From an uncultured Holophagales bacterium (GTDB lineage: Bacteria > Acidobacteriota > Thermoanaerobaculia > Multivoradales > UBA5704), in contig CAWJGT010000034.1 in assembly GCA_963842525.1 (NCBI GenBank), positions 96,001 through 160,000 on the forward strand: a stretch of DNA of 64,000 nt. The letters run 5' to 3'. The position numbers and the translations under genes were made by a program. The notes beneath the pieces were generated by a model that worked only from the letters and a program-made list of their open reading frames with translations, was not told the origin of the DNA and did not search any database. Shown piece after piece: positions 2,398 through 48,886 of the stretch. The stretch's first letter is position 1. The number at the start of each line of letters is the position of its first letter.

Positions 2398-3216
2398 TCA
2401 TCGAGTCGGCGCCGCTGCCGTATCCTTTTTCTCCACTCCCTTCGCTTTCTCCGCTTTTTCTTTCGCCGCCTTCTCCTGCTCTTCCTTCATTTTCTTTTCC
2501 GCCGCCCTCCGCTCCTCCTCCCTCTTGTCATCGGCGTCGTGGACCTTCCCCAGGTGCTCGAAGAAGGACATCTTCTCATTCATCTGGAAAAGCGAGGCCT
2601 TTGGATCGCGCCAGAGGATCGGCCGCAGGAAGGTCGCGGCCTGGAGGGAGACGAGGGCGAAGAGCAGCAGCCAGAGGATCATGCCCCGGGCTCCGGATGC
2701 GGCAAGCGCTCGACCCAGGAACCGCCATCCGACCGCGAGGGCGATCAGCCACAGCGCGACGTGCAGCCACACGACCGAGGCGAGATAGCGGCTGCTCACC
2801 GAAAAGAGCCAGGAGATCGGCAGCAGCGCGGCAAGCAGGAGCGACAGGATGCCGGCGAAGCCGGCCATGACGGCCAGGAAGCTCCGCGGCGTCCACCGCG
2901 CTCCGGCGAGCGCGCCGAAGACGTAGAGGCTCGGCGCACAGAGCAGCAACGTGAGCGCCAGGATCAGCGGCGCTTTGAACGCCGCGATCAGGATCTGCGA
3001 TCCCCCCTGGAAGAAACCGGCCGCCACGCCGTACAGCGCATAGCCGACGAACGAGCCGGCGAGCAGACGGAGGGGCACCGACGACTGAGCGTGCCGCGAC
3101 CGCTCGATCACGGCCAGCGGCTGCACGAGCAACTCGTTGAAGGAGCCCAGAAGGGTCCGGGGCTCAGGGTGTCCACCTTCAGGCAAGAGCGGAGTTTCCA
3201 TGCGGGTCTCTCCCAT
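2398..3216 (-). CDS. Multi-pass membrane protein, paralogue of the adjacent gene
   Basis: Several hydrophobic helices; KAPLIL/LRP motifs shared with 3220-3930; Lys/Glu-rich tail. Confidence 0.7.
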   Translation of the reverse strand: MGETRMETPLLPEGGHPEPRTLLGSFNELLVQPLAVIERSRHAQSSVPLRLLAGSFVGYALYGVAAGFFQGGSQILIAAFKAPLILALTLLLCAPSLYVFGALAGARWTPRSFLAVMAGFAGILSLLLAALLPISWLFSVSSRYLASVVWLHVALWLIALAVGWRFLGRALAASGARGMILWLLLFALVSLQAATFLRPILWRDPKASLFQMNEKMSFFEHLGKVHDADDKREEERRAAEKKMKEEQEKAAKEKAEKAKGVEKKDTAAAPTR

Positions 3217-3219
3217 CCA

Positions 3220-3930
3220 TCAAATCGACACAAGGTGAGGAAGGATGTCCGTGAAGATGAACTCGTAGACGTTGCCGTCCAGAGCATCCCCACGGAGAAA
3301 GACGACGGGAACGTAGACGCTCCCCACGAACGGGCGCAGGGCCCAGGCCACCTCCCCGCCCACCAGGGCATAGGTCACGACCCAGAGCAGGTAGACGGTG
3401 CGGACGCTCCGCAGGGGTGCGTCAAGCCGCCGCATCGCCCGCCAGAGGACGGCCGTACCGGCCAGGCCGCACCCGCCCACGAAGGCCGTATGCATCAAAT
3501 ACAAGAGGTTGTGCGCGGTCCGCGCCTGCGTCCCCGGAGCGGGGGCGCAAAAGGTGAACAGCCACGCCACCGGGGCGAGCGAAGCCAGCAGCAGGCTGGC
3601 GACGGCCAGGGCCAGGAAGGTGAGGACTGCCATCTGGCCGAGCCCCAGGGTCAGCCCGAGCACACGGGCCGCGGTCCACGCGAAAACGACCGTGAGCGCC
3701 GAGGTCAGCAGCAGGACGAGAGGAAATTTGACCGCCACGTAGAAGGATAGCTCGGCGCCATGCCACATGCCGAGGACCGCGCCATAGAGCGCGGCGCCGG
3801 CGATCATGACGGCGCTGAGGACGAGCCAGTGCCGCACCAGGCCGCGTCCCGCCATCACGTCGTCCAAAAGGGGCTCGAGCTGCAGCTCCCAGCCGCTGCT
3901 CCGATCTACACCGGTGTCCAAGGTTGCCAT
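3220..3930 (-). CDS. Multi-pass membrane protein
   Basis: Hydrophobic helices; KFPLVL, PVAWLF, WALRPFVG motifs. Confidence 0.7.
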   Translation of the reverse strand: MATLDTGVDRSSGWELQLEPLLDDVMAGRGLVRHWLVLSAVMIAGAALYGAVLGMWHGAELSFYVAVKFPLVLLLTSALTVVFAWTAARVLGLTLGLGQMAVLTFLALAVASLLLASLAPVAWLFTFCAPAPGTQARTAHNLLYLMHTAFVGGCGLAGTAVLWRAMRRLDAPLRSVRTVYLLWVVTYALVGGEVAWALRPFVGSVYVPVVFLRGDALDGNVYEFIFTDILPHLVSI

Positions 3931-4130
3931 AGCGATGTTCGACGTCCGGGAGGGTATACGGACCGGACCGGATCGCCGTCGCGACGGGGCCTCTTGCTAC
4001 TTTGTAAAAATGGGAACGAACGGATTTCGGCGGATCGGGAGGGAATCAGGAATGACGAGGAACCGCCCCAAAATACGGGAGGGGCCCCGGGCAGACCCGA
4101 GACCCCCGTTGCGCCTGCAGACGGAACCGC

Positions 4131-4400
4131 TCAGCGGACAGCGCCGCGGCGGAACAGGTTGACGATGGCCAGCAGGACGATCGCCCCGACCAGAGAGATC
4201 AGAAGACCCGAAAGGCTGAAGTCTCCCTGGGTGATGGAGCCTGTGCCGAACAGCGGAGCCAGCAACACACCGGCGAGCAAGGCGCCGACGATGCCGACGA
4301 CGATGTTGAGAATGACGCCCTGCTGGGCATTGGTACGCATGACCATGCTGGCGATCCAGCCAATCAGGCCACCGACGATGAGCATAATGATGATGTTCAT
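4131..4400 (-). CDS. GlsB/YeaQ/YmgE family (transglycosylase-associated) stress membrane protein
   Basis: LIVGGLIGWIAS...LNIVVGIVGA...SLVGAIVLLAIVNLFRRG; RBS AAGGAGG. Confidence 0.9.
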   Translation of the reverse strand: MNIIIMLIVGGLIGWIASMVMRTNAQQGVILNIVVGIVGALLAGVLLAPLFGTGSITQGDFSLSGLLISLVGAIVLLAIVNLFRRGAVR

Positions 4401-4536
4401 GAGCCTAACCTCCTTCGTTGGTGAAGCTTGTTGATGAAAGTTTCTTATCCCTCTCCCTTCGCCTCCGATCCCCTCCTAGAGCAACAGTCATGCCATGTGG
4501 TGAGCTCCGGACTCCACTAGAATCCCTTCGGCTCTC

Positions 4537-5493
4537 ATGGACACCTCGCTCCCCACGGACCCCTCACCGCCCACGCCGGCACCACCGCGTCCGCGCTGGC
4601 ATCCGGTCGTCCGTTCGCTCCTGTTCGTGGTGGCTTTCCAGATCATCACCGCGGCCGCGGCGACCCCTGTCGTCCTGTTCCTCTGGATCACCCGCGGCGT
4701 CATCAACCTGACCGGCGAGGCGCTGCTGGTCGTCAATGCCCTCGCCGCACCGCTGTTGGTCCTGGTGACGCGCCTCTTCGTGCACTACCTCGACCGCCGG
4801 AGTCTGGCGAGCCTGGGCGCCCGCTGGCCGGCCGGAGGGAAGAGGGCGGCGCTCCGCCAGGCCCTCGTCCTGACGCCGGTGGTCCTCGGCCTGCTCGGCC
4901 TCTGGTGGCTGCTTCTGGATGCGCTCCCCGTCAGCGAGATCCAGGCCGCGGGATGGAGCGACGGCATGCGGGCCGCCGGCTGGAAGGGCCCGCTGTTCCT
5001 GGTCCTTCTGGCCGCCGGGTTCCTGGTGCAGGGAAGCGTCGAGGAGTGGGTGGTCCGGGGGTACGTCTACCACGCGCTCAAGGAGCGCTGGCGCTGGTGG
5101 GCCGCGGCCCTCACGTCCTCCCTGCTCTTCGCGGGGCTCCATGCGATCAATCCGGACTTCTCGTGGGTTGGCATGATTAACACGTTCCTCGCCGGCCTGA
5201 TCTTCGCCCTGCTGGTCGAGCGCAGCGGCAGTCTCTGGGGCGCCTGCGTGGCCCATGGCGCCTGGAACTTCGCCCTGGCCTCCCTGTTCTCGCTGCCGGT
5301 CAGCGGCATCCGCGTCTTCCACCTGCTCGACGTCCGGGTCGAGGGTCCGGAGCTGTTGACCGGAGGCGGTTTCGGGGCGGAGGGGAGTCTCCTGCTGACG
5401 GTCCTCGCCCTGCCCCTCGTCCCGCTCCTCTGGCCGCGGCGCAGGCCCGCTCCGGCGGACACCGCGAGCACAGAAGAGGGGACTGTCCTCTGA
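4537..5493 (+). CDS. CPBP family (type II CAAX) intramembrane glutamic endopeptidase
   Basis: EEWVVRG, FAGLH and HGAWN motifs. Confidence 0.9.
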   Translation: MDTSLPTDPSPPTPAPPRPRWHPVVRSLLFVVAFQIITAAAATPVVLFLWITRGVINLTGEALLVVNALAAPLLVLVTRLFVHYLDRRSLASLGARWPAGGKRAALRQALVLTPVVLGLLGLWWLLLDALPVSEIQAAGWSDGMRAAGWKGPLFLVLLAAGFLVQGSVEEWVVRGYVYHALKERWRWWAAALTSSLLFAGLHAINPDFSWVGMINTFLAGLIFALLVERSGSLWGACVAHGAWNFALASLFSLPVSGIRVFHLLDVRVEGPELLTGGGFGAEGSLLLTVLALPLVPLLWPRRRPAPADTASTEEGTVL

Positions 5494-30237: not shown

Positions 30238-32157
30238 ATGTCGCCCCGAAGCCGGCTCGTGCTTGTCCTCCTCCTCCTCGCCCTCTGCCTGTCCTGCCGG
30301 CAGGGCGGGCCGGCCAACGACCCGGCAGCCAGCCCGGGCCGGCCGGTGGTCTTCGTCGGCCTCGACGGCGCGGACTGGCAGCTCCTCGACCAGTTGATGC
30401 GGGCGGGGCGGATGCCGAATCTGGCAGGGCTCGTTCGCGAGGGCCAGGCGGGGGTGCTGACCACGATCCAGCCGCCGCTCTCCCCTCTTGTGTGGACGAC
30501 CATGATGACCGGGGTGAGCCCGCTGGAGCATGGCATCCTCGACTTCACCCGGTTCAACCCGCGGACCGGGGTGCGCGAGCCGATCCCCGGCACGGAGCGG
30601 CGGGTGCCGGCGGTCTGGAACATGGCGAGCGACGAGGCGAAAAGCGTCGCGGTTTTCGGGATGTGGGCCACCTATCCGGCCGAGCCGGTGCGCGGCTTGA
30701 TGGTGGCCGACCGGTTCCTCTCCTTCACCTCGGGCGCAGGCGGTCCACCGCCGAGCTCGGTCCATCCTCCGGACCGGGAGGGCTGGGCGCGGGAGGTCCT
30801 CAAACGCACGGAGGCGGAGGTCGGGCTTGCAGCGTTGCGGACCTATCTGCCGGACCTGTCGGAGGACGAATTCCGCGCTGCCGCAGCCCGGCCCGATCCC
30901 TATGCCCACCCCGTGAGCGCTCTGCGCAAGGTCCTCGTCGAGACCCGGGCCTATGACGAGCTGGCGCGCACGTGGATCGCAAGGGAGAGGCCGGACCTGG
31001 CGATCGTCTACTTTCAAGGGACGGATACGATCGGCCATGTGTTCGCGCCCTATGCGCCGCCGCGTCAGCCTTCGATCTCTCCGGAGGACTTCGACCGCTA
31101 TCACCGTGTTCCGGAGGTCTATTTCGCCGAGGTCGACCGCCTCCTGGGCGGCTACCGGAAGCTCGCGGAGGAACGCGGTGCGGTGCTCTTCCTCGCTTCG
31201 GATCATGGCTTCCTGTGGGGCGAGGGACGGCCGGAGCGGCTGTCGAGCGCTGCCGTGGCCACGGCCGGGCGGTGGCACCGGGACGCGGGGATCTACCTCC
31301 TGTGGGGGCCGGGCATCGCGGCCGGGAGCGAGAGGCCGCGCGGCCGGGTGGGCCAGGTCTGCGCCACGCTGCTGGGGCTGCTTGGGTTGCCGCCGGGCAA
31401 GGGGCTCGAAGGCGGGCCGCTCCCGGGCGCTCCTGCACCCCAGGGCGAGCCGATCGACTATCGGGCTCACTACAAGCCGGCCCAGGCGGCGTTGTCCTCC
31501 GGGTCCTCCGGGTCTTCCGAGGACGAGATCGCGAAGCTTCGTGCCCTGGGCTATGTCGGCGCGGGCGAGCGCACGCAAGCGCCGCAGGGATCGGGCTCCA
31601 CGCGCACCGCGGCCTCCTGGAACAATGAAGGGCTTCTCCACCGTCAGGCTGGCCGGACCCGCGAGGCCGTGACGGCCTTCGAACAGGCCCTCGCCCTCGA
31701 TCCTCAGTACGCCTCCGCCCTCTGGAACTTGAGCGATCTGCTGCGGGCCGAGAGCCGTGAGCCGGACCGTTCGGACGACCTCCTGGTCCGCGCTCTGGAG
31801 GCGGGGCTTCCCGACGGGGCCGACCAGGCCGGCGCCCGGGCCGTCGAGGAGGCGCGGGCTGGCCGGTCTGACCGGGCGATCCGGCTGCTCGACCGCGCGC
31901 TCGCGGTTCAACCTACCGAGCCGAAGCTGCTCCTCACCCGGGGCCGGTTGCGCCTGGAAGGACAGGACTGCCATGCCGCGTTGGCCGACTTCGAAAAGGC
32001 TGCGAAATCCGCTCCGGATCTTGCCCTCGCCCACAGCTCTGTCGGCCTTGCCCGCCTCTGCCTGGGCGATCCCACAGGGGCGAAGGCGGCGTTCCAGCGG
32101 TCTTTGGAGATCGATCCGAACCAACCGGAGATTGCACGGGCGTTGGCGGGGCTGTGA
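30238..32157 (+). CDS. Alkaline phosphatase superfamily (phosphodiesterase-type) lipoprotein with C-terminal TPRs
   Basis: Lipobox-like CLSC; VGLDGADW, SPLVWTTMMTG, DTIGH, SDHGF, LRALGYV; TPRs. Confidence 0.88.
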   Translation: MSPRSRLVLVLLLLALCLSCRQGGPANDPAASPGRPVVFVGLDGADWQLLDQLMRAGRMPNLAGLVREGQAGVLTTIQPPLSPLVWTTMMTGVSPLEHGILDFTRFNPRTGVREPIPGTERRVPAVWNMASDEAKSVAVFGMWATYPAEPVRGLMVADRFLSFTSGAGGPPPSSVHPPDREGWAREVLKRTEAEVGLAALRTYLPDLSEDEFRAAAARPDPYAHPVSALRKVLVETRAYDELARTWIARERPDLAIVYFQGTDTIGHVFAPYAPPRQPSISPEDFDRYHRVPEVYFAEVDRLLGGYRKLAEERGAVLFLASDHGFLWGEGRPERLSSAAVATAGRWHRDAGIYLLWGPGIAAGSERPRGRVGQVCATLLGLLGLPPGKGLEGGPLPGAPAPQGEPIDYRAHYKPAQAALSSGSSGSSEDEIAKLRALGYVGAGERTQAPQGSGSTRTAASWNNEGLLHRQAGRTREAVTAFEQALALDPQYASALWNLSDLLRAESREPDRSDDLLVRALEAGLPDGADQAGARAVEEARAGRSDRAIRLLDRALAVQPTEPKLLLTRGRLRLEGQDCHAALADFEKAAKSAPDLALAHSSVGLARLCLGDPTGAKAAFQRSLEIDPNQPEIARALAGL

Positions 32158-45417: not shown

Positions 45418-45702
45418 ATGACCCTCACGATCGACCTGTCGCCGGAGCTGCAAGAGCGCCTCAGCCGAGAAGCGGCCCAGCAGGGTATCCCCATCGAGAG
45501 CTACGCGCTCGAGCTCCTGGACAAGCACCTGCCGCCCGAGGATCGCCCCGCCGAGCTGATCTCGCTGCTCCAGTCCTGGATCGAGAAAGGAGATGCAGAG
45601 GAGCAGGGGGAGACCGGGGAGTATCTGGTCCGCGTCCTGGACGAAGACCGCCTCTCCGATCGCAAGCTGTTTCCCCCGGAGCTCAAAGGCGTGACCTGGT
45701 GA
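45418..45702 (+). CDS. RHH-type antitoxin-like protein; no intact downstream toxin
   Basis: MTLTIDLSPELQERLSREAAQQG..RKLFP; RBS GGAGGAGG. Confidence 0.7.
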   Translation: MTLTIDLSPELQERLSREAAQQGIPIESYALELLDKHLPPEDRPAELISLLQSWIEKGDAEEQGETGEYLVRVLDEDRLSDRKLFPPELKGVTW

Positions 45703-45808: not shown

Positions 45809-46045
45809 ATGGCAGCTCAAATAATTGGACGGCACATCGTAACCGACCCTGGTATCTGCCACGGCCAACCCACCTTCCGCGGCACGCGCGTCCTCGTCTC
45901 CGACGTGTTGGAGGAGATCGCTTCCGGTATGGCCTGGGAGACCGTGATCCAGGAATGGCACGGGAGCATCACCAAAGAGGCCATTGCCGAGGCACTGCAA
46001 CTGGCCACCTTCGATTGCGGCTGCCCCGAAGGGGCAAAGGCGTAA
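45809..46045 (+). CDS. DUF433 protein (antitoxin-like); C-terminus runs into the REP
   Basis: IVTDPGICHGQPTFRGTRVLVSDVLE..G. Confidence 0.85.
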   Translation: MAAQIIGRHIVTDPGICHGQPTFRGTRVLVSDVLEEIASGMAWETVIQEWHGSITKEAIAEALQLATFDCGCPEGAKA

Positions 46046-46217
46046 AGCCTGGCGCTTCAGCGCCAGTCAGCGTTCCCCCAACCCTCCAAGCCCCGAAGGG
46101 GCGACGGCATAGGCGAGGGGCGCGAGCCCCGCTGCGGGCGGATGGTAGAGAATGCCTACGCCCCTTCAGGGCTCCAGGTAATTGGGGGGCGCCAACCTGG
46201 CGCTGAAGCGCCAGGCT
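46023..46217. repeat. REP-like family D cluster, completed at 47824-47846 beyond the IS110
   Basis: GCCCCGAAGGGGC..TAAAGCCTGGCGCTTCAGCGCCAG ... CTGGCGCTGAAGCGCCAGGCT|TTATGCCCCAGCCCCTTCGGGGC. Confidence 0.85.
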
Positions 46218-46239
46218 TCTATGTGGGCCCCCGTTGTCA

Positions 46240-46598
46240 AGCGTTTCGGGTAAGTGGGTCTGCGTTTCGTCTCCTTCCTGAATGCCGCCTGAGGTTTGTT
46301 GCCCGGAGAGCTCCCCCGGCAGCAAGGTGCTGTTTCTCCTACCTCAAATGCGATCCCGTCTGGGGCTTGCCGATTGCGCCAGGAACCGTAGTCCCCGTCA
46401 AGCTTCTATCCGTGCTGACCTCCCTCAATTTCTTGGAGAGGGCACCAAATGCAGCATGCGCTGCGAGCGACTCGGGCAAGCAAACGGAGCGGCCCCATCT
46501 TTAATGGCGGCTCGAAACCGAACCCAGCCTGGCGCCGGGCACGCTCCTCCCAGCCTGAAATCTCCTATTTTGCGGTCACACTTTCTGCCTCTTGATCC
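46240..46598 (-). ncRNA. Putative bridge RNA/seekRNA region of the IS110
   Basis: Target-matching segments at 46526-46535 and 46499-46503; donor-matching segments at 46447-46452 and 46403-46409; transcript ends unknown. Confidence 0.7.
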
Positions 46599-47738
46599 TT
46601 ACCTGGCCTTCAGCTCAGCGCCATCAGGAATGATCCCTTGGTCCAAGTAGCGCCACAGCGCGGTCAGAAGCTTGCGCGCCAGGGCCACGATCCCTACCCG
46701 TCGCGAGCGCCGGTTCCCAGGGCCATAGCGCCCCTGGAACCATAAGCTCAAGCGGCTCTGCGGCTGGAACCGCAACCACGCCCAGGCGATCTCGATCGAC
46801 ATCGTACGCACCCGCACATTGCCGGACTTACTGATCCCCTGCTCGTGGTCCACCGTCGTGCCGCTCTTGTAGGGCATCGGCGTCAACCCAGCCAAGCTGC
46901 CTACCTCACGGCGATTCCGGAACTGCCGCCAGCCAAAAAATTCCAGGACGAACAACCAGGCGCTGTTGTCGCCGATGGCCTTGAGCTTTTTCAGCCGCTG
47001 CACCATCCCGCCCTCTCTGGACGCGGCTTCGGCCCGCTGCCGAGTTTGCTCCAACTCCTTGATCTGACTCTCCAGAAGCTCCAGCCGCTCGACTTCCCGA
47101 CGCAGACGCTCCCGCAAGACTGGCAGCAGCGGCTCGCCGTTCCACTGCCGCAACTGCTCCAACTGCTGCGCAAACCCCTTGCCTACCTTCACCCGGATTC
47201 CAAGGCTCACCAGCAAGGACTTGATCCGATTGGTGTGGGCCGTCCGCTCCTGCTTCAGGCCCTCCAACTCTCGACCCAGGTGGCGCACATCCTCCTGCTC
47301 CGGCGTCGGCGCATGCGCCACACCGAACACTTTTCTTTCACCTGCCGCGTAGCGGATCAGCAGCGACAGCAACTTCTCAGCGTCAACCCGGTCCGTCTTC
47401 GCCCGCCGAGCCCGACGATTCACCTCGATGCTCGAGGAGTCCACCACAACGTTCTCCACACCCTCCAGCAGCAAGAACCGGTGAAGCCAGAATCCATCCC
47501 GGCCTGCCTCGTAGCAACTCACGACAGGAGTTGTTTCCGGTAAACCGAAACGGTGTTTGGCGCGTCCGATCTCCAACATCAGCCCGTTGAGATCCCCGGC
47601 CGCCACCGAGCGCAGCCGAGGTTTCGGGCCAGCCTCCGCAGCAAAAGCCAACTTCCACTCGCTACCGCCCAGCTCCAATGCCACGTGCAATGCTCTCTCC
47701 GTTCGCGTAAACTCTGCCTTCTGGGCTGTCTGGTTCAT
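46599..47738 (-). CDS. IS110 family DEDD recombinase/transposase
   Basis: VALELG, CYEAG, AKTDRVDA, GLTPMPYKSG, GISKSGN, VALARKL. Confidence 0.93.
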   Translation of the reverse strand: MNQTAQKAEFTRTERALHVALELGGSEWKLAFAAEAGPKPRLRSVAAGDLNGLMLEIGRAKHRFGLPETTPVVSCYEAGRDGFWLHRFLLLEGVENVVVDSSSIEVNRRARRAKTDRVDAEKLLSLLIRYAAGERKVFGVAHAPTPEQEDVRHLGRELEGLKQERTAHTNRIKSLLVSLGIRVKVGKGFAQQLEQLRQWNGEPLLPVLRERLRREVERLELLESQIKELEQTRQRAEAASREGGMVQRLKKLKAIGDNSAWLFVLEFFGWRQFRNRREVGSLAGLTPMPYKSGTTVDHEQGISKSGNVRVRTMSIEIAWAWLRFQPQSRLSLWFQGRYGPGNRRSRRVGIVALARKLLTALWRYLDQGIIPDGAELKAR

Positions 47739-47879
47739 CGGGGTTCCCCTTTCAAACGCTAAGTTCCCCGAAACATACAACCAGCGGCCCCGCTCTTGCA
47801 CCCCCTCGCCCTGCATAGCATCTTTATGCCCCAGCCCCTTCGGGGCCTCTCCAACCGAAGCGAATCTGACAAAGCAGAA

Positions 47880-48776
47880 TTATCCTCTGCCAGTAACGCG
47901 CGCCACCGAGGCGAGCCGGCGGCAGGCCCACACCGCCGCAACGCCGCCTAAAGAAAAGACCACGGCCGCGATCCAGAACGCCGGGTCCGGTCCGCTCTCC
48001 CAGAGCAGCGGCCGCGGCGCGGGCTCGCCCATCCGCCAGACCCAGAGAAAGGTTGCGACGTCCACCGCAGTGTGGAGGACCACGCCCGGCAGGATGGAGC
48101 CTGTGATCCAGGCCAGGGCTCCGAAGAGCACGGAGACGCCCAGGAAGACCGGCATCAGCGCCGGCGACCAGCTCGCATGCGAGGCATGGATCAGGCCGAA
48201 GACGGTCCCGGTGATCAGGATCGCCACCACCACGCCGTGGCGCCGCTCGATGGTCCCCTGCATATAGCCGCGGAAGCCGGCCTCCTCGGATACGCCGGCG
48301 ACCAGGGAGACCATGATGAAGAAGCTGAGGATCTCGAGCGAGGAGAACCGGGACAGGTCGGGGAGCGCCTCCCGCGGAATCGCGATCAGCCGCAGGATGA
48401 GCCGTTGCAGGCCGACCACGCTCGCAATGCCAAGGACGCCCGCGAGCAGCGACCAGCTCCAGGCGCGCCCGGACAGGCGGGTGGCCCGCAAACCCCGGCG
48501 CCGCGCCTCGGCCGTGGACCGAGGCCATCCCCGTCCCCGGAGCCATTGCCAGAAGAGCCCGAGCAGGACCGCCATGACCAGCACCGACCAGGGGATGGGG
48601 AATGCCCAGGGGTGTTTCAGGTTGGCCCCGACCAGGAGCGCCCAGGGTCCGTTGCCTCCGGCCGAAACCAGCAATCCAACGAGGATCGCGCGCGGGATGA
48701 CCGGGAGACCTCGCCAAGCCCTGGCCGCCAAGCTCCCTGCCGCGTCCGTGGGCGTCCTCGTCCTCTCGTTTGCCAT
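47880..48776 (-). CDS. CPBP family intramembrane glutamic endopeptidase
   Basis: EEAGFRG, FGLIH, GSILPGVVLH. Confidence 0.88.
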   Translation of the reverse strand: MANERTRTPTDAAGSLAARAWRGLPVIPRAILVGLLVSAGGNGPWALLVGANLKHPWAFPIPWSVLVMAVLLGLFWQWLRGRGWPRSTAEARRRGLRATRLSGRAWSWSLLAGVLGIASVVGLQRLILRLIAIPREALPDLSRFSSLEILSFFIMVSLVAGVSEEAGFRGYMQGTIERRHGVVVAILITGTVFGLIHASHASWSPALMPVFLGVSVLFGALAWITGSILPGVVLHTAVDVATFLWVWRMGEPAPRPLLWESGPDPAFWIAAVVFSLGGVAAVWACRRLASVARVTGRG

Positions 48777-48886
48777 TACGTCAGGAACCATCTCCAGCCT
48801 CCTTTCGCGGCGTCCGTGCCGCCTCCATCTCCTCTGAAGATAGGTCTCCAAGCCGCTCTGAGTCCTGGAAAAGAGCTGGGATCTTC

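Follow-up and report, generated by a model that had tools for sequence, protein, structure and literature searches.

A 1,604-bp element of the IS110 family occupies positions 46218–47821 of the window (the whole 64,000-nt stretch of DNA analysed, from an uncultured Holophagales bacterium), with a CT core dinucleotide repeated on both flanks (46216–46217 and 47822–47823). Very probably, this is an intact IS110-family element with an IS1111-like layout, whose 3′ bridge RNA of about 190 nt would address both a REP target and the element's own ends. The bridge (or seek) RNA reading is strongly supported by computation, because both the RNA structure and the pairing between guides and DNA covary among homologues. 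The locus is a clear natural example of a mechanism described in 2024 and introduces no new principle.

The element, its insertion site and its copies

The main features of the locus are as follows.

46022–46067, minus strand: intact REP arm, Acido-Lenti-1-like, inverted partner of the interrupted arm (RF01687, 33.5 bits, E 2.9e-5; 27/28 bases shared with the restored arm)
46196–46215, plus strand: first hairpin of the interrupted REP arm, holding the left target ...GCGCCAGG (the same flank adjoins all four copies)
46216–46217, plus strand: left CT core copy (CT is present at both junctions in every A, B and C copy)
46218–46356, minus strand: right end in transposase orientation, terminal ...CCACATAGA (right donor TCTAT on the plus strand)
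46357–46550, minus strand: bridge (seek) RNA module, 194 nt, target-binding loop followed by donor-binding loop (covariance model R1, 160.6 bits; consensus structure)
46599–47738, minus strand: transposase/recombinase gene, 379 aa plus stop (Pfam PF01548 and PF02371; NF033542; predicted fold)
47739–47821, minus strand: left end in transposase orientation, starting ATGCTATGCAGGGC (left donor ...GCATAGCAT on the plus strand)
47822–47823, plus strand: right CT core copy
47824–47850, plus strand: rest of the interrupted REP arm, with the right target TTATGCC and a second small hairpin

As predicted, deleting 46218–47823 restores the REP arm, giving CTGGCGCTGAAGCGCCAGG-CT-TTATGCC. The restored arm is also the inverse of the neighboring one, its reverse complement matching 46039–46066 at 27 of 28 bases. 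Uninterrupted REP copies elsewhere in the genome read ...CCAGGCT-TTATGCC, and 19 exact GCGCCAGGCTTTA sites are free. Both arms beside the element (46022–46067 and 46196–46234) align over the entire RF01687 model, with scores of 33.5 and 27.2 bits, respectively, each below the gathering score of 37. Acido-Lenti-1 (RF01687) is filed as an sRNA in Rfam, whereas here it is a high-copy intergenic repeat, often found in inverted pairs, with at least 135 matches genome-wide and at least 98 copies above the gathering score. In this genome, the Acido-Lenti-1-like repeat behaves like a REP and is the landing site of the element.

Four copies of the element (group A) are present in the genome, on three contigs, each in a different genomic context and all at the same position of the same REP (...CCAGG-CT-TTATGCC). 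Copies at unrelated sites, which the original prediction had named as evidence against itself, are therefore not found among them. The four copies are distinguished by a 2-nt indel and three substitutions, all outside the gene (at most five differences in 1,608 nt), and their 379-codon reading frame is identical. From its sequence, the element appears to be intact and recently active.

The genome also contains two sibling elements, with about 77% DNA identity and the same ends, in two other repeat families: group B (five full copies), at the site GCCCAGGG-CT-GAG, and group C (two copies), at the site GGGCGGAG-CT-GAG. In the four A, five B and two C copies, the shared core dinucleotide CT lies at both junctions, with no other target duplication. 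One further sibling copy is truncated (C9:1835724-1836563), and a solo end is present at C12:20672-20707.

The non-coding regions of the element measure 381 nt downstream and 83 nt upstream of the gene. Its subterminal repeat is the 5-bp CTATG, set in from the two ends by offsets of 3 and 1, with an extension in which 8 of 11 bases match; a local alignment score as high was reached in 156 of 1,000 shuffles. Conservation among 51 unique end pairs is limited to (C)TATG, and the family consensus of the left end is AT-nn-TATG. A TTGACA hexamer lies at 46240–46235, 17 nt from the right end, and of 48 unique homologue ends, 44 have a TTGACA-like hexamer at a distance of 16–17 nt, a count in which only the spacing is informative, since a TTGAC filter was used to call these ends. 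A simple scan found no sigma-70-type promoter inside the integrated element. A promoter may instead arise at the circle junction, where the TTGACA would be joined by a GATGCT-like hexamer formed from the core G and the first bases of the left end.

The recombinase and the RNA module

The gene product matches PF01548 (DEDD_Tnp_IS110; 29.8 bits, cut-off 29), PF02371 (Transposase_20; 56.4 bits) and NF033542, the “IS110 family RNA-guided transposase” (193.7 bits, cut-off 140). The best PDB matches of its AlphaFold model (pLDDT 83.8) in Foldseek were the ISCro4 and IS621 bridge recombinases (E 7e-13 to 9e-11, TM 0.55–0.69, 365–373 columns), and the protein is composed of a RuvC-like domain, a coiled coil and a Tnp domain. 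The KTDxxDA and AGLTPxxYxSG motifs align with IS621, in which the catalytic D-E-D-D and serine are D11, E60, D102, D105 and S241, according to the available part of its description (PMC11208158). All 47 homologues retain E77, D116, D119 and S292, and the last three align with IS621 residues in sequence. The first acidic position would be E22 (E in 44/47 homologues, D in 3/47), which was placed by the end of strand 1 in the model, without residue-level structural superposition. Conservation of G284, L285, P289, S292 and G293 in the C-terminal domain corresponds to the GL-P----S(t)G motif.

Downstream of the gene, the RNA module contains the following segments, in 5′ to 3′ order of the transposase strand.

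46526–46535, minus strand: left target guide GCGCCAGGCU, with the same sequence as the left target and core (guides of the siblings match their own targets; covariation in the family)
46509–46524, minus strand: hairpin GGUUCG-GUUU-CGAGCC, which closes the target-binding loop (one pair is U-G in A and U-A in B)
46499–46503, minus strand: right target guide UAAAG, reverse complement of core plus right target, CT-TTA (in B and C, CUCAG for CT-GAG)
46496–46498, minus strand: AUG that follows the right target guide and is complementary to the final three bases of the left donor (CAT), a candidate handshake guide (AGAUGGG is nearly invariant)
46447–46452, minus strand: left donor guide GCAUUU, in which GCAU corresponds to the last four left-donor bases and UU faces the core, with U-G wobble possible
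46412–46445, minus strand: central hairpin of the donor-binding loop (helix 5, 96.8% paired; 6/8 pairs changed on both sides)
46402–46409, minus strand: right donor guide AUAGAAG and the next base, C, which would pair with the last left-target base

Of 80 homologous loci, which belong to other phyla and share 51–62% protein identity, 77 have a full-length match to model R1 3′ of the gene. In the consensus helices, 93.1% of cells are paired, against 35–44% with slid partners, and 28 of the 34 consensus pairs show compensatory changes on both sides; these counts come from an alignment fitted to R1 and from homologues that are mutually related. The second module (helices 3–7) is supported by conservation and covariation as well as the first. 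An Rfam search gave no described family for the 3′ non-coding region; its only matches were in the REP arms, below threshold.

Single-sequence folding gave z = 0.18 for the whole non-coding region, no better than shuffles, and z = -2.04 for the 194-nt module, with 6 of 200 shuffles folding as well. It had been proposed that the guides lie in two internal loops. This description fits the target loop, which is internal and has a closing hairpin; the donor loop branches and carries two further hairpins. Burial of the guides in stems, the finding that was to count against the proposal, is seen in part: in the minimum-energy fold of the module, short helices take up bases of the left target (5/10), right target (2/5), left donor (4/6) and right donor (1/7) guides. 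These helices are not conserved and are absent from the consensus structure.

Guide–DNA covariation and alternative readings

The four guides were confirmed on the minus strand at the positions originally given: GCGCCAGGCU at 46535–46526, UAAAG at 46503–46499, GCAUUU at 46452–46447 and AUAGAAG at 46409–46403. In 200,000 mononucleotide shuffles of the 381-nt region, these motifs appeared at frequencies of 0.1, 25, 3.5 and 2.2%, in guide order, and no shuffle contained all four in that order.

The siblings provide a first comparison within the genome. Their ends and donor guides are the same as in A, and their target guides are GCCCAGGGCU/CUCAG in B and GGGCGGAGCU/CUCAG in C, so that all 11 full copies of A, B and C occupy the target given by their own RNA. 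Sharing a donor module and differing in their target loops, the siblings represent natural retargeting within one genome. Among close relatives, the left target guide matches the flank over 8 nt in G002 and 9 nt in G003, and the right target guide matches at 4/5 bases in G003 and G019.

The expectation that guides covary with insertion sites across homologues was borne out by these siblings and by up to 56 distinct guide variants elsewhere. In this comparison, the ends of the loci were called by terminal motifs. Three loci with no RNA match (L025, L052 and L080) and one whose best gene match lay on the other strand (L048) were excluded, the 5′ end was called in 66 and the 3′ end in 64 of 76 loci, and duplicate guide–flank pairs were removed. 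The right target guide matched its own flank at 4.04 of 5 bases, compared with 1.48 for the flanks of other elements (46 distinct guides). Likewise, the contiguous match of the left target guide was 5.4 nt with its own flank versus 2.5 nt (56 distinct loops, 16 of which have a left-target match of only 2–3 nt). For both guides, none of 10,000 permutations reached the observed value. In homologues with non-REP targets too, the two guide positions of the alignment vary along with the target. Judged from these sequences, covariation support is strong for the target guides and moderate for the left donor guide; covariation of the right donor guide is impossible, because both this guide and the right donor end are nearly invariant in the family.

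The donor side is where another reading has to be weighed. It holds that the RNA, a short seekRNA corresponding to the first module, sets target choice only, that it is mainly the protein that reads the donor ends, via the conserved subterminal CTATG repeats, and that the second module is a scaffold. The predominant RNA bound by IS1111-family transposases is indeed 82–96 nt long and carries two target matches (Siddiquee et al., PMC11187229). Moreover, near-invariance of the right donor guide and of both ends makes donor pairing by RNA inseparable from recognition by protein, the left donor guide matches at no more than four bases, and the guide bases that face the donor core are variable rather than conserved as CU. 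However, the variable dinucleotide of the left donor guide (GC, GT, GG, TT or GA) equals the donor end in 44 of 62 cases, a value reached in 0 of 10,000 permutations, although this guide has only two informative bases and 18 of the 62 are mismatched. In addition, the base after the right donor guide, at the handshake position, equals the last left-target base in 52 of 55 cases, which is explained only if the donor loop pairs with DNA. Together with a second module as conserved and covarying as the first, these observations make recognition of the donor ends mainly by protein improbable.

A second alternative is that the locus is a decaying relic, with copies produced by segmental duplication or old insertion and with a dead RNA and recombinase. 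The absence of a promoter in the scan of the integrated element, the truncated sibling copy and the solo end would fit such a relic. This is nevertheless very unlikely, given four copies on three contigs with identical frames and almost identical sequences, their different contexts at one REP position, and the intact state of all catalytic candidates and of the RNA consensus. Finally, the idea that the target-like strings are captured REP fragments or chance matches and that the protein alone picks the site, which could appeal to the abundance of GC-rich repeats in this genome (the Acido-Lenti-1 matches above) and to the frequency of UAAAG in shuffles, is scarcely credible: it is contradicted by the guide–flank tests across homologues, by the lack of shuffles with the four ordered motifs, by guide positions that change with the target in B, C and non-REP homologues, and by the fixed places of these strings in a conserved, covarying structure.

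The bridge RNA reading is thus preferred, and the intact RNA-guided recombinase aimed at a REP family that had been put forward is supported by the protein profile and fold matches and by natural guide covariation.

Proposed mechanism and relationship to known systems

In the proposed mechanism, the RNA would be transcribed and processed from the 3′ non-coding region. The left target guide GCGCCAGGCU, having the same sequence as the left target and CT core, would base-pair to the target's bottom strand, and UAAAG to the top strand in the core and right target. In the branched second module, GCAU(UU) would address the left donor end and AUAGAAG the core and right donor end. Once strands have been exchanged, the extra base after each right-hand guide may pair with the other DNA, in the manner described for the handshake guides of IS621 in the available parts of two reports (PMC11208160, PMC11208158). 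Excision would yield a circle in which the CT core joins the two element ends, and the RNA-loaded recombinase would catalyze insertion of this circle, without target duplication, just past the first hairpin in one Acido-Lenti-1-like REP subfamily. By analogy, and considering the natural retargeting in this genome, the system may be reprogrammable.

The original guide order and CT core agree with the IS621 guide definitions, and the 3′ position of the RNA agrees with IS1111 seekRNAs. Similarity to IS621 and ISCro4 (IS110 group) extends to the protein fold, the KTDxxDA motif, the YxSG serine motif and the CT core, as well as to the arrangement of a target loop (guides around a hairpin) followed by a donor loop, with left guides sense and right guides complementary to the top strand. 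A handshake base after each right-hand guide is a further common trait, as far as the available portions of the IS621 papers describe it (PMC11208158, PMC11208160). In contrast to IS621, whose RNA is 5′ of the gene, the RNA here is 3′, the gene is not on the strand on which the site reads CT but on the other one, the donor loop is a branched one bearing two additional hairpins, most members of the present family have E as the first acidic residue, and the 379-aa protein has detectable sequence similarity in the C-terminal part only (E ~1e-6).

IS1111 seekRNAs are encoded in the 3′ non-coding region, with the top-strand match 5′ of the bottom-strand match (PMC11187229). The same order is found here: the 5′ GCGCCAGGCU is complementary to AGCCTGGCGC on the transposase strand and the 3′ UAAAG to the other strand. 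The IS1111 elements ISEc11, ISPa11 and ISKpn4 also share the long non-coding region 3′ of the gene, the GL-P----SG motif and site-specific insertion without target duplication. REP targeting is known for ISPa11 (PMC11187229) and, from the available part of its report, for ISPpu9 (PMC12288879). However, published IS1111 transposases have 330–350 aa and subterminal inverted repeats of 7–17 bp (PMC11187229), compared with 379 aa and a conserved repeat of 5 bp here. With IS5075 (334 aa), BLASTP aligned only residues 114–362 (the C-terminal ~253 residues), at 29% identity, and model R1 had no match in the IS5075 locus. The label “IS1111-type” therefore stands for the layout and guide order, and membership of the IS1111 group is unproven.

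The closest named IS found was ISRel9 (41% identity over 375 residues, E 3e-76), a name taken from the NCBI annotation of a transposase on an Agrobacterium larrymoorei plasmid; ISRel9 was not mentioned in the literature searched. A weak RNA trace lies 3′ of this transposase (5.6 bits, E 0.28), but the family is too distant for the RNA model and the plasmid copy is cut by an IS21 insertion.

It is tentatively suggested that the element and its relatives form a third, unnamed subgroup of bridge recombinases, neither strict IS110 nor strict IS1111, perhaps with RNA loading in cis. Such a subgroup may be marked by an RNA that lies 3′ and has a branched donor loop, by a subterminal repeat of only 5 bp, by E-E-D-D as the active site and by a transposase about 380 aa long. 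Preferential loading of the RNA in cis may also occur among its members, as suggested by the three siblings, which share donor ends and guides, yet whose 11 full copies all lie in own-RNA targets.

More generally, programmable DNA insertion by way of bridge or seek RNAs is a recent discovery, and this locus is a clean natural experiment in which three co-resident siblings are each found only in their own repeat family. These siblings could be used to test mutual use of RNAs (cross-talk), and the natural guide variants, of which more than 50 are distinct and all can be aligned to a single RNA model, could serve to map important guide positions outside the IS621 subgroup. The lineage had been described as poorly sampled, but it is not especially so: the genus has five additional species genomes available, and the search took in 24 additional genomes from the family. 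Relatives of the element were found at 550 loci at least, mainly in Acidobacteriota, Chloroflexota, Planctomycetota and Gemmatimonadota.

Element A and its insertion site

The original prediction, of an IS1111-type element lying in one arm of a REP and encoding a bridge RNA, concerns a feature that is real, intact and correctly read, and all of its coordinates agree with the sequence on re-check. The element (A; 46218-47821) and its surroundings comprise the following features.

45418-45699, plus strand: ParD-like protein (24.3 bits, below the cut-off)
45809-46042, plus strand: DUF433 protein
46022-46067, minus strand: Acido-Lenti-1-like arm
46196-46215 and 47824-47850, plus strand: Acido-Lenti-1-like arm, in two parts
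46216-17 and 47822-23: CT core copies, at both element junctions
46357-46550, minus strand: putative bridge/seek RNA module
47738-46599, minus strand: transposase gene (379 aa)
47883-48851, minus strand: Rce1-like CPBP membrane protease

Element A and the REP pair sit between the convergent genes for the DUF433 protein and the Rce1-like protease. Excision of 46218-47823 restores, as had been claimed, the arm CTGGCGCTGAAGCGCCAGG-CT-TTATGCC, whose reverse complement agrees with 46039-46066 at 27 of 28 bases. The target repeat aligns with the Rfam family Acido-Lenti-1 (RF01687), with a score below threshold. In this genome (9.95 Mb, 67.8% G+C), Acido-Lenti-1 gives at least 135 matches, of which 98 exceed the threshold, from 150 scored among 2,775 candidates; 19 exact 13-mer target sites for element A remain free. 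Although Rfam files RF01687 as an sRNA, it is here a high-copy intergenic repeat, whose copies are often paired, inverted and about 150 nt apart (for example, contig C24:30149-30194, minus strand, with 30338-30383, plus strand), resembling REP doublets or a small MITE.

The genome holds four copies of element A, on contigs C34, C9 (two) and C19. No copy lies at an unrelated site: all four are at ...CCAGG-CT-TTATGCC, one position of the same REP. A 2-nt indel and three substitutions are the only differences among them, and none falls within the gene. The extra GA at 46306-46307 belongs to the window copy alone, and the C19 copy carries the substitutions (46309, 46313 and 46433), the last in the loop region of the RNA module's central hairpin.

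The transposase has the Pfam domains DEDD_Tnp_IS110 and Transposase_20 and matches NCBIfam NF033542 ("IS110 family RNA-guided transposase") with 193.7 bits. The fold predicted in its AlphaFold model (41 sequences; pLDDT 83.8) aligns with the ISCro4 and IS621 recombinases across 365-373 columns. Residues E77, D116, D119 and S292 are invariant among homologues, and at the first acidic position of the presumed DEDD tetrad, E22 (codon 47673-47675), 44 of 47 homologues have E and the other 3 have D.

A perfect -35-like hexamer, TTGACA, occurs at 46235-46240 (minus strand), 17 nt inside the element end (46218). Of 48 unique homologue ends, which were called with a TTGAC filter, 44 have a similar hexamer at a fixed distance of 16-17 nt. 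Upon circularisation, TTGACA would face GATnnT, formed by the core G and the first left-end bases (GATAAT in 12 homologues, GATGCT in element A), which suggests, from these motifs, a putative promoter at the circle junction.

Guides and structure of the RNA module

The four proposed guide segments stand at the stated positions of the minus strand: left target GCGCCAGGCU (46535-46526), right target UAAAG (46503-46499), left donor GCAUUU (46452-46447) and right donor AUAGAAG (46409-46403). When the 381-nt non-coding region was shuffled 200,000 times by mononucleotide, 0.1% of the shuffles contained the 10-mer GCGCCAGGCU, and none contained the four motifs in order (0/200,000).

Among species-representative genomes, at least 550 loci encode transposase relatives; the best 80 share 51-62% identity and belong to MAGs of Acidobacteriota, Chloroflexota, Planctomycetota, Gemmatimonadota and other phyla. 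The covariance model of the RNA module (R1), built from nine sequences, has a full-length match 3' of the gene at 77 of these 80. Of 40 related genomes, 5 also contain a match, as does a Cupriavidus plasmid copy; IS5075 gave none. At one locus (L097; MAG contig CAVWOZ010000032.1, locus coordinates 2501-5313), the gene match ends at residue 337 and the RNA lies about 1.6 kb past it; an insertion seems to have split this element.

In the R1 alignment, which is fitted to the model and contains related sequences, 93.1% of cells pair (35-44% with slid partners) and 28 of 34 pairs have changes on both sides. In the consensus, a 10-bp stem closes the target module, where a hairpin separates the left target guide from the right one, after which comes AUG. 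A 7-bp stem closes the donor module, in which both guides are single-stranded: the left one lies between a small and a central hairpin, and the right one between the central and a third hairpin. The target guides hence lie in an internal loop, as the proposed folding test required, whereas the donor guides lie in a branched loop. The minimum-energy fold of element A's single sequence (z = -2.04) places some guide bases in short non-conserved helices (left target 5/10, right target 2/5, left donor 4/6, right donor 1/7).

Covariation was assessed with element ends called from the conserved terminal motifs AG|ATnnTATG and TTGAC...CATAGA|AG, and both target guides track their own flanks. The five non-core bases of the right target guide match their own flank at 4.04 positions, versus 1.48 for the flanks of other elements (46 distinct guides), and the left target guide matches, up to the core C, over 5.4 contiguous nt on average versus 2.5 nt (56 distinct loops, 16 of which match over only 2-3 nt); neither value was reached in 10,000 permutations. 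Similarly, the left donor guide has a variable dinucleotide that agrees with the donor end in 44 of 62 cases (0/10,000 permutations as high). The first core-facing base of this guide is U or C in 54 of 71 and the second is variable; a 5/6 left donor match, as originally reported, is thus usual in the family, with a U-G wobble possible in element A. In 52 of 55 cases, the nucleotide that follows the right donor guide is identical to the first base of the flank and therefore pairs with the left target's last base. This nucleotide and the AU that follows the right target guide almost without variation correspond to the handshake guides described for IS621 (PMC11208158).

Placement among known systems

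The proposed mechanism and the anatomy of element A match those published for bridge and seek RNAs (PMC11187229; PMC11208160; PMC11208158). Its assignment as "IS1111-type" holds in part: the RNA 3' of the gene and the order in which the guides follow each other, taken in gene orientation, are IS1111-like (PMC11187229), whereas the 379-aa protein and its partial 29% identity to IS5075 differ from the published IS1111 criteria, and the 5-bp conserved subterminal repeat does not clearly fit them. The closest named relative is an ISRel9-family transposase (41% identity). In large surveys, such RNAs have already been predicted in most IS1111 elements (PMC11208160) and across metagenomes (preprint). 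The value of element A lies in its natural retargeting series and its link to Acido-Lenti-1 repeats.

Natural retargeting in sibling groups

Two sibling groups in the same genome, B and C, share about 77% DNA and 78% protein identity with element A, as well as its terminal sequences (CT-TCTATGTGG ... GCATAGCAT-CT), and are inserted in other repeats.

Target guides and targets of the three groups
Group A: left guide GCGCCAGGCU, right guide UAAAG; target as for element A
Group B: left guide GCCCAGGGCU, right guide CUCAG; target GCCCAGGG-CT-GAGGCC; five full copies (C34, C11 (two), C30, C21), plus a truncated copy and a solo end
Group C: left guide GGGCGGAGCU, right guide CUCAG; target GGGCGGAG-CT-GAG; two copies, both on C23

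In the aligned 3' non-coding regions, the target guides of each group match that group's own target, and the donor-guide positions GCAUUU and AUAGAAG are identical in all three. For each of the 11 full copies, the copy's own RNA specifies the target in which it is inserted. Such placement, despite identical donor ends and donor guides, hints, in small numbers, that the RNA is used in cis or that there is little cross-talk. B-type targets also flank the truncated copy (C9:1835724-1836563; 840 nt, comprising the right end and RNA) and the solo right end (C12:20672-20707; 36 nt).
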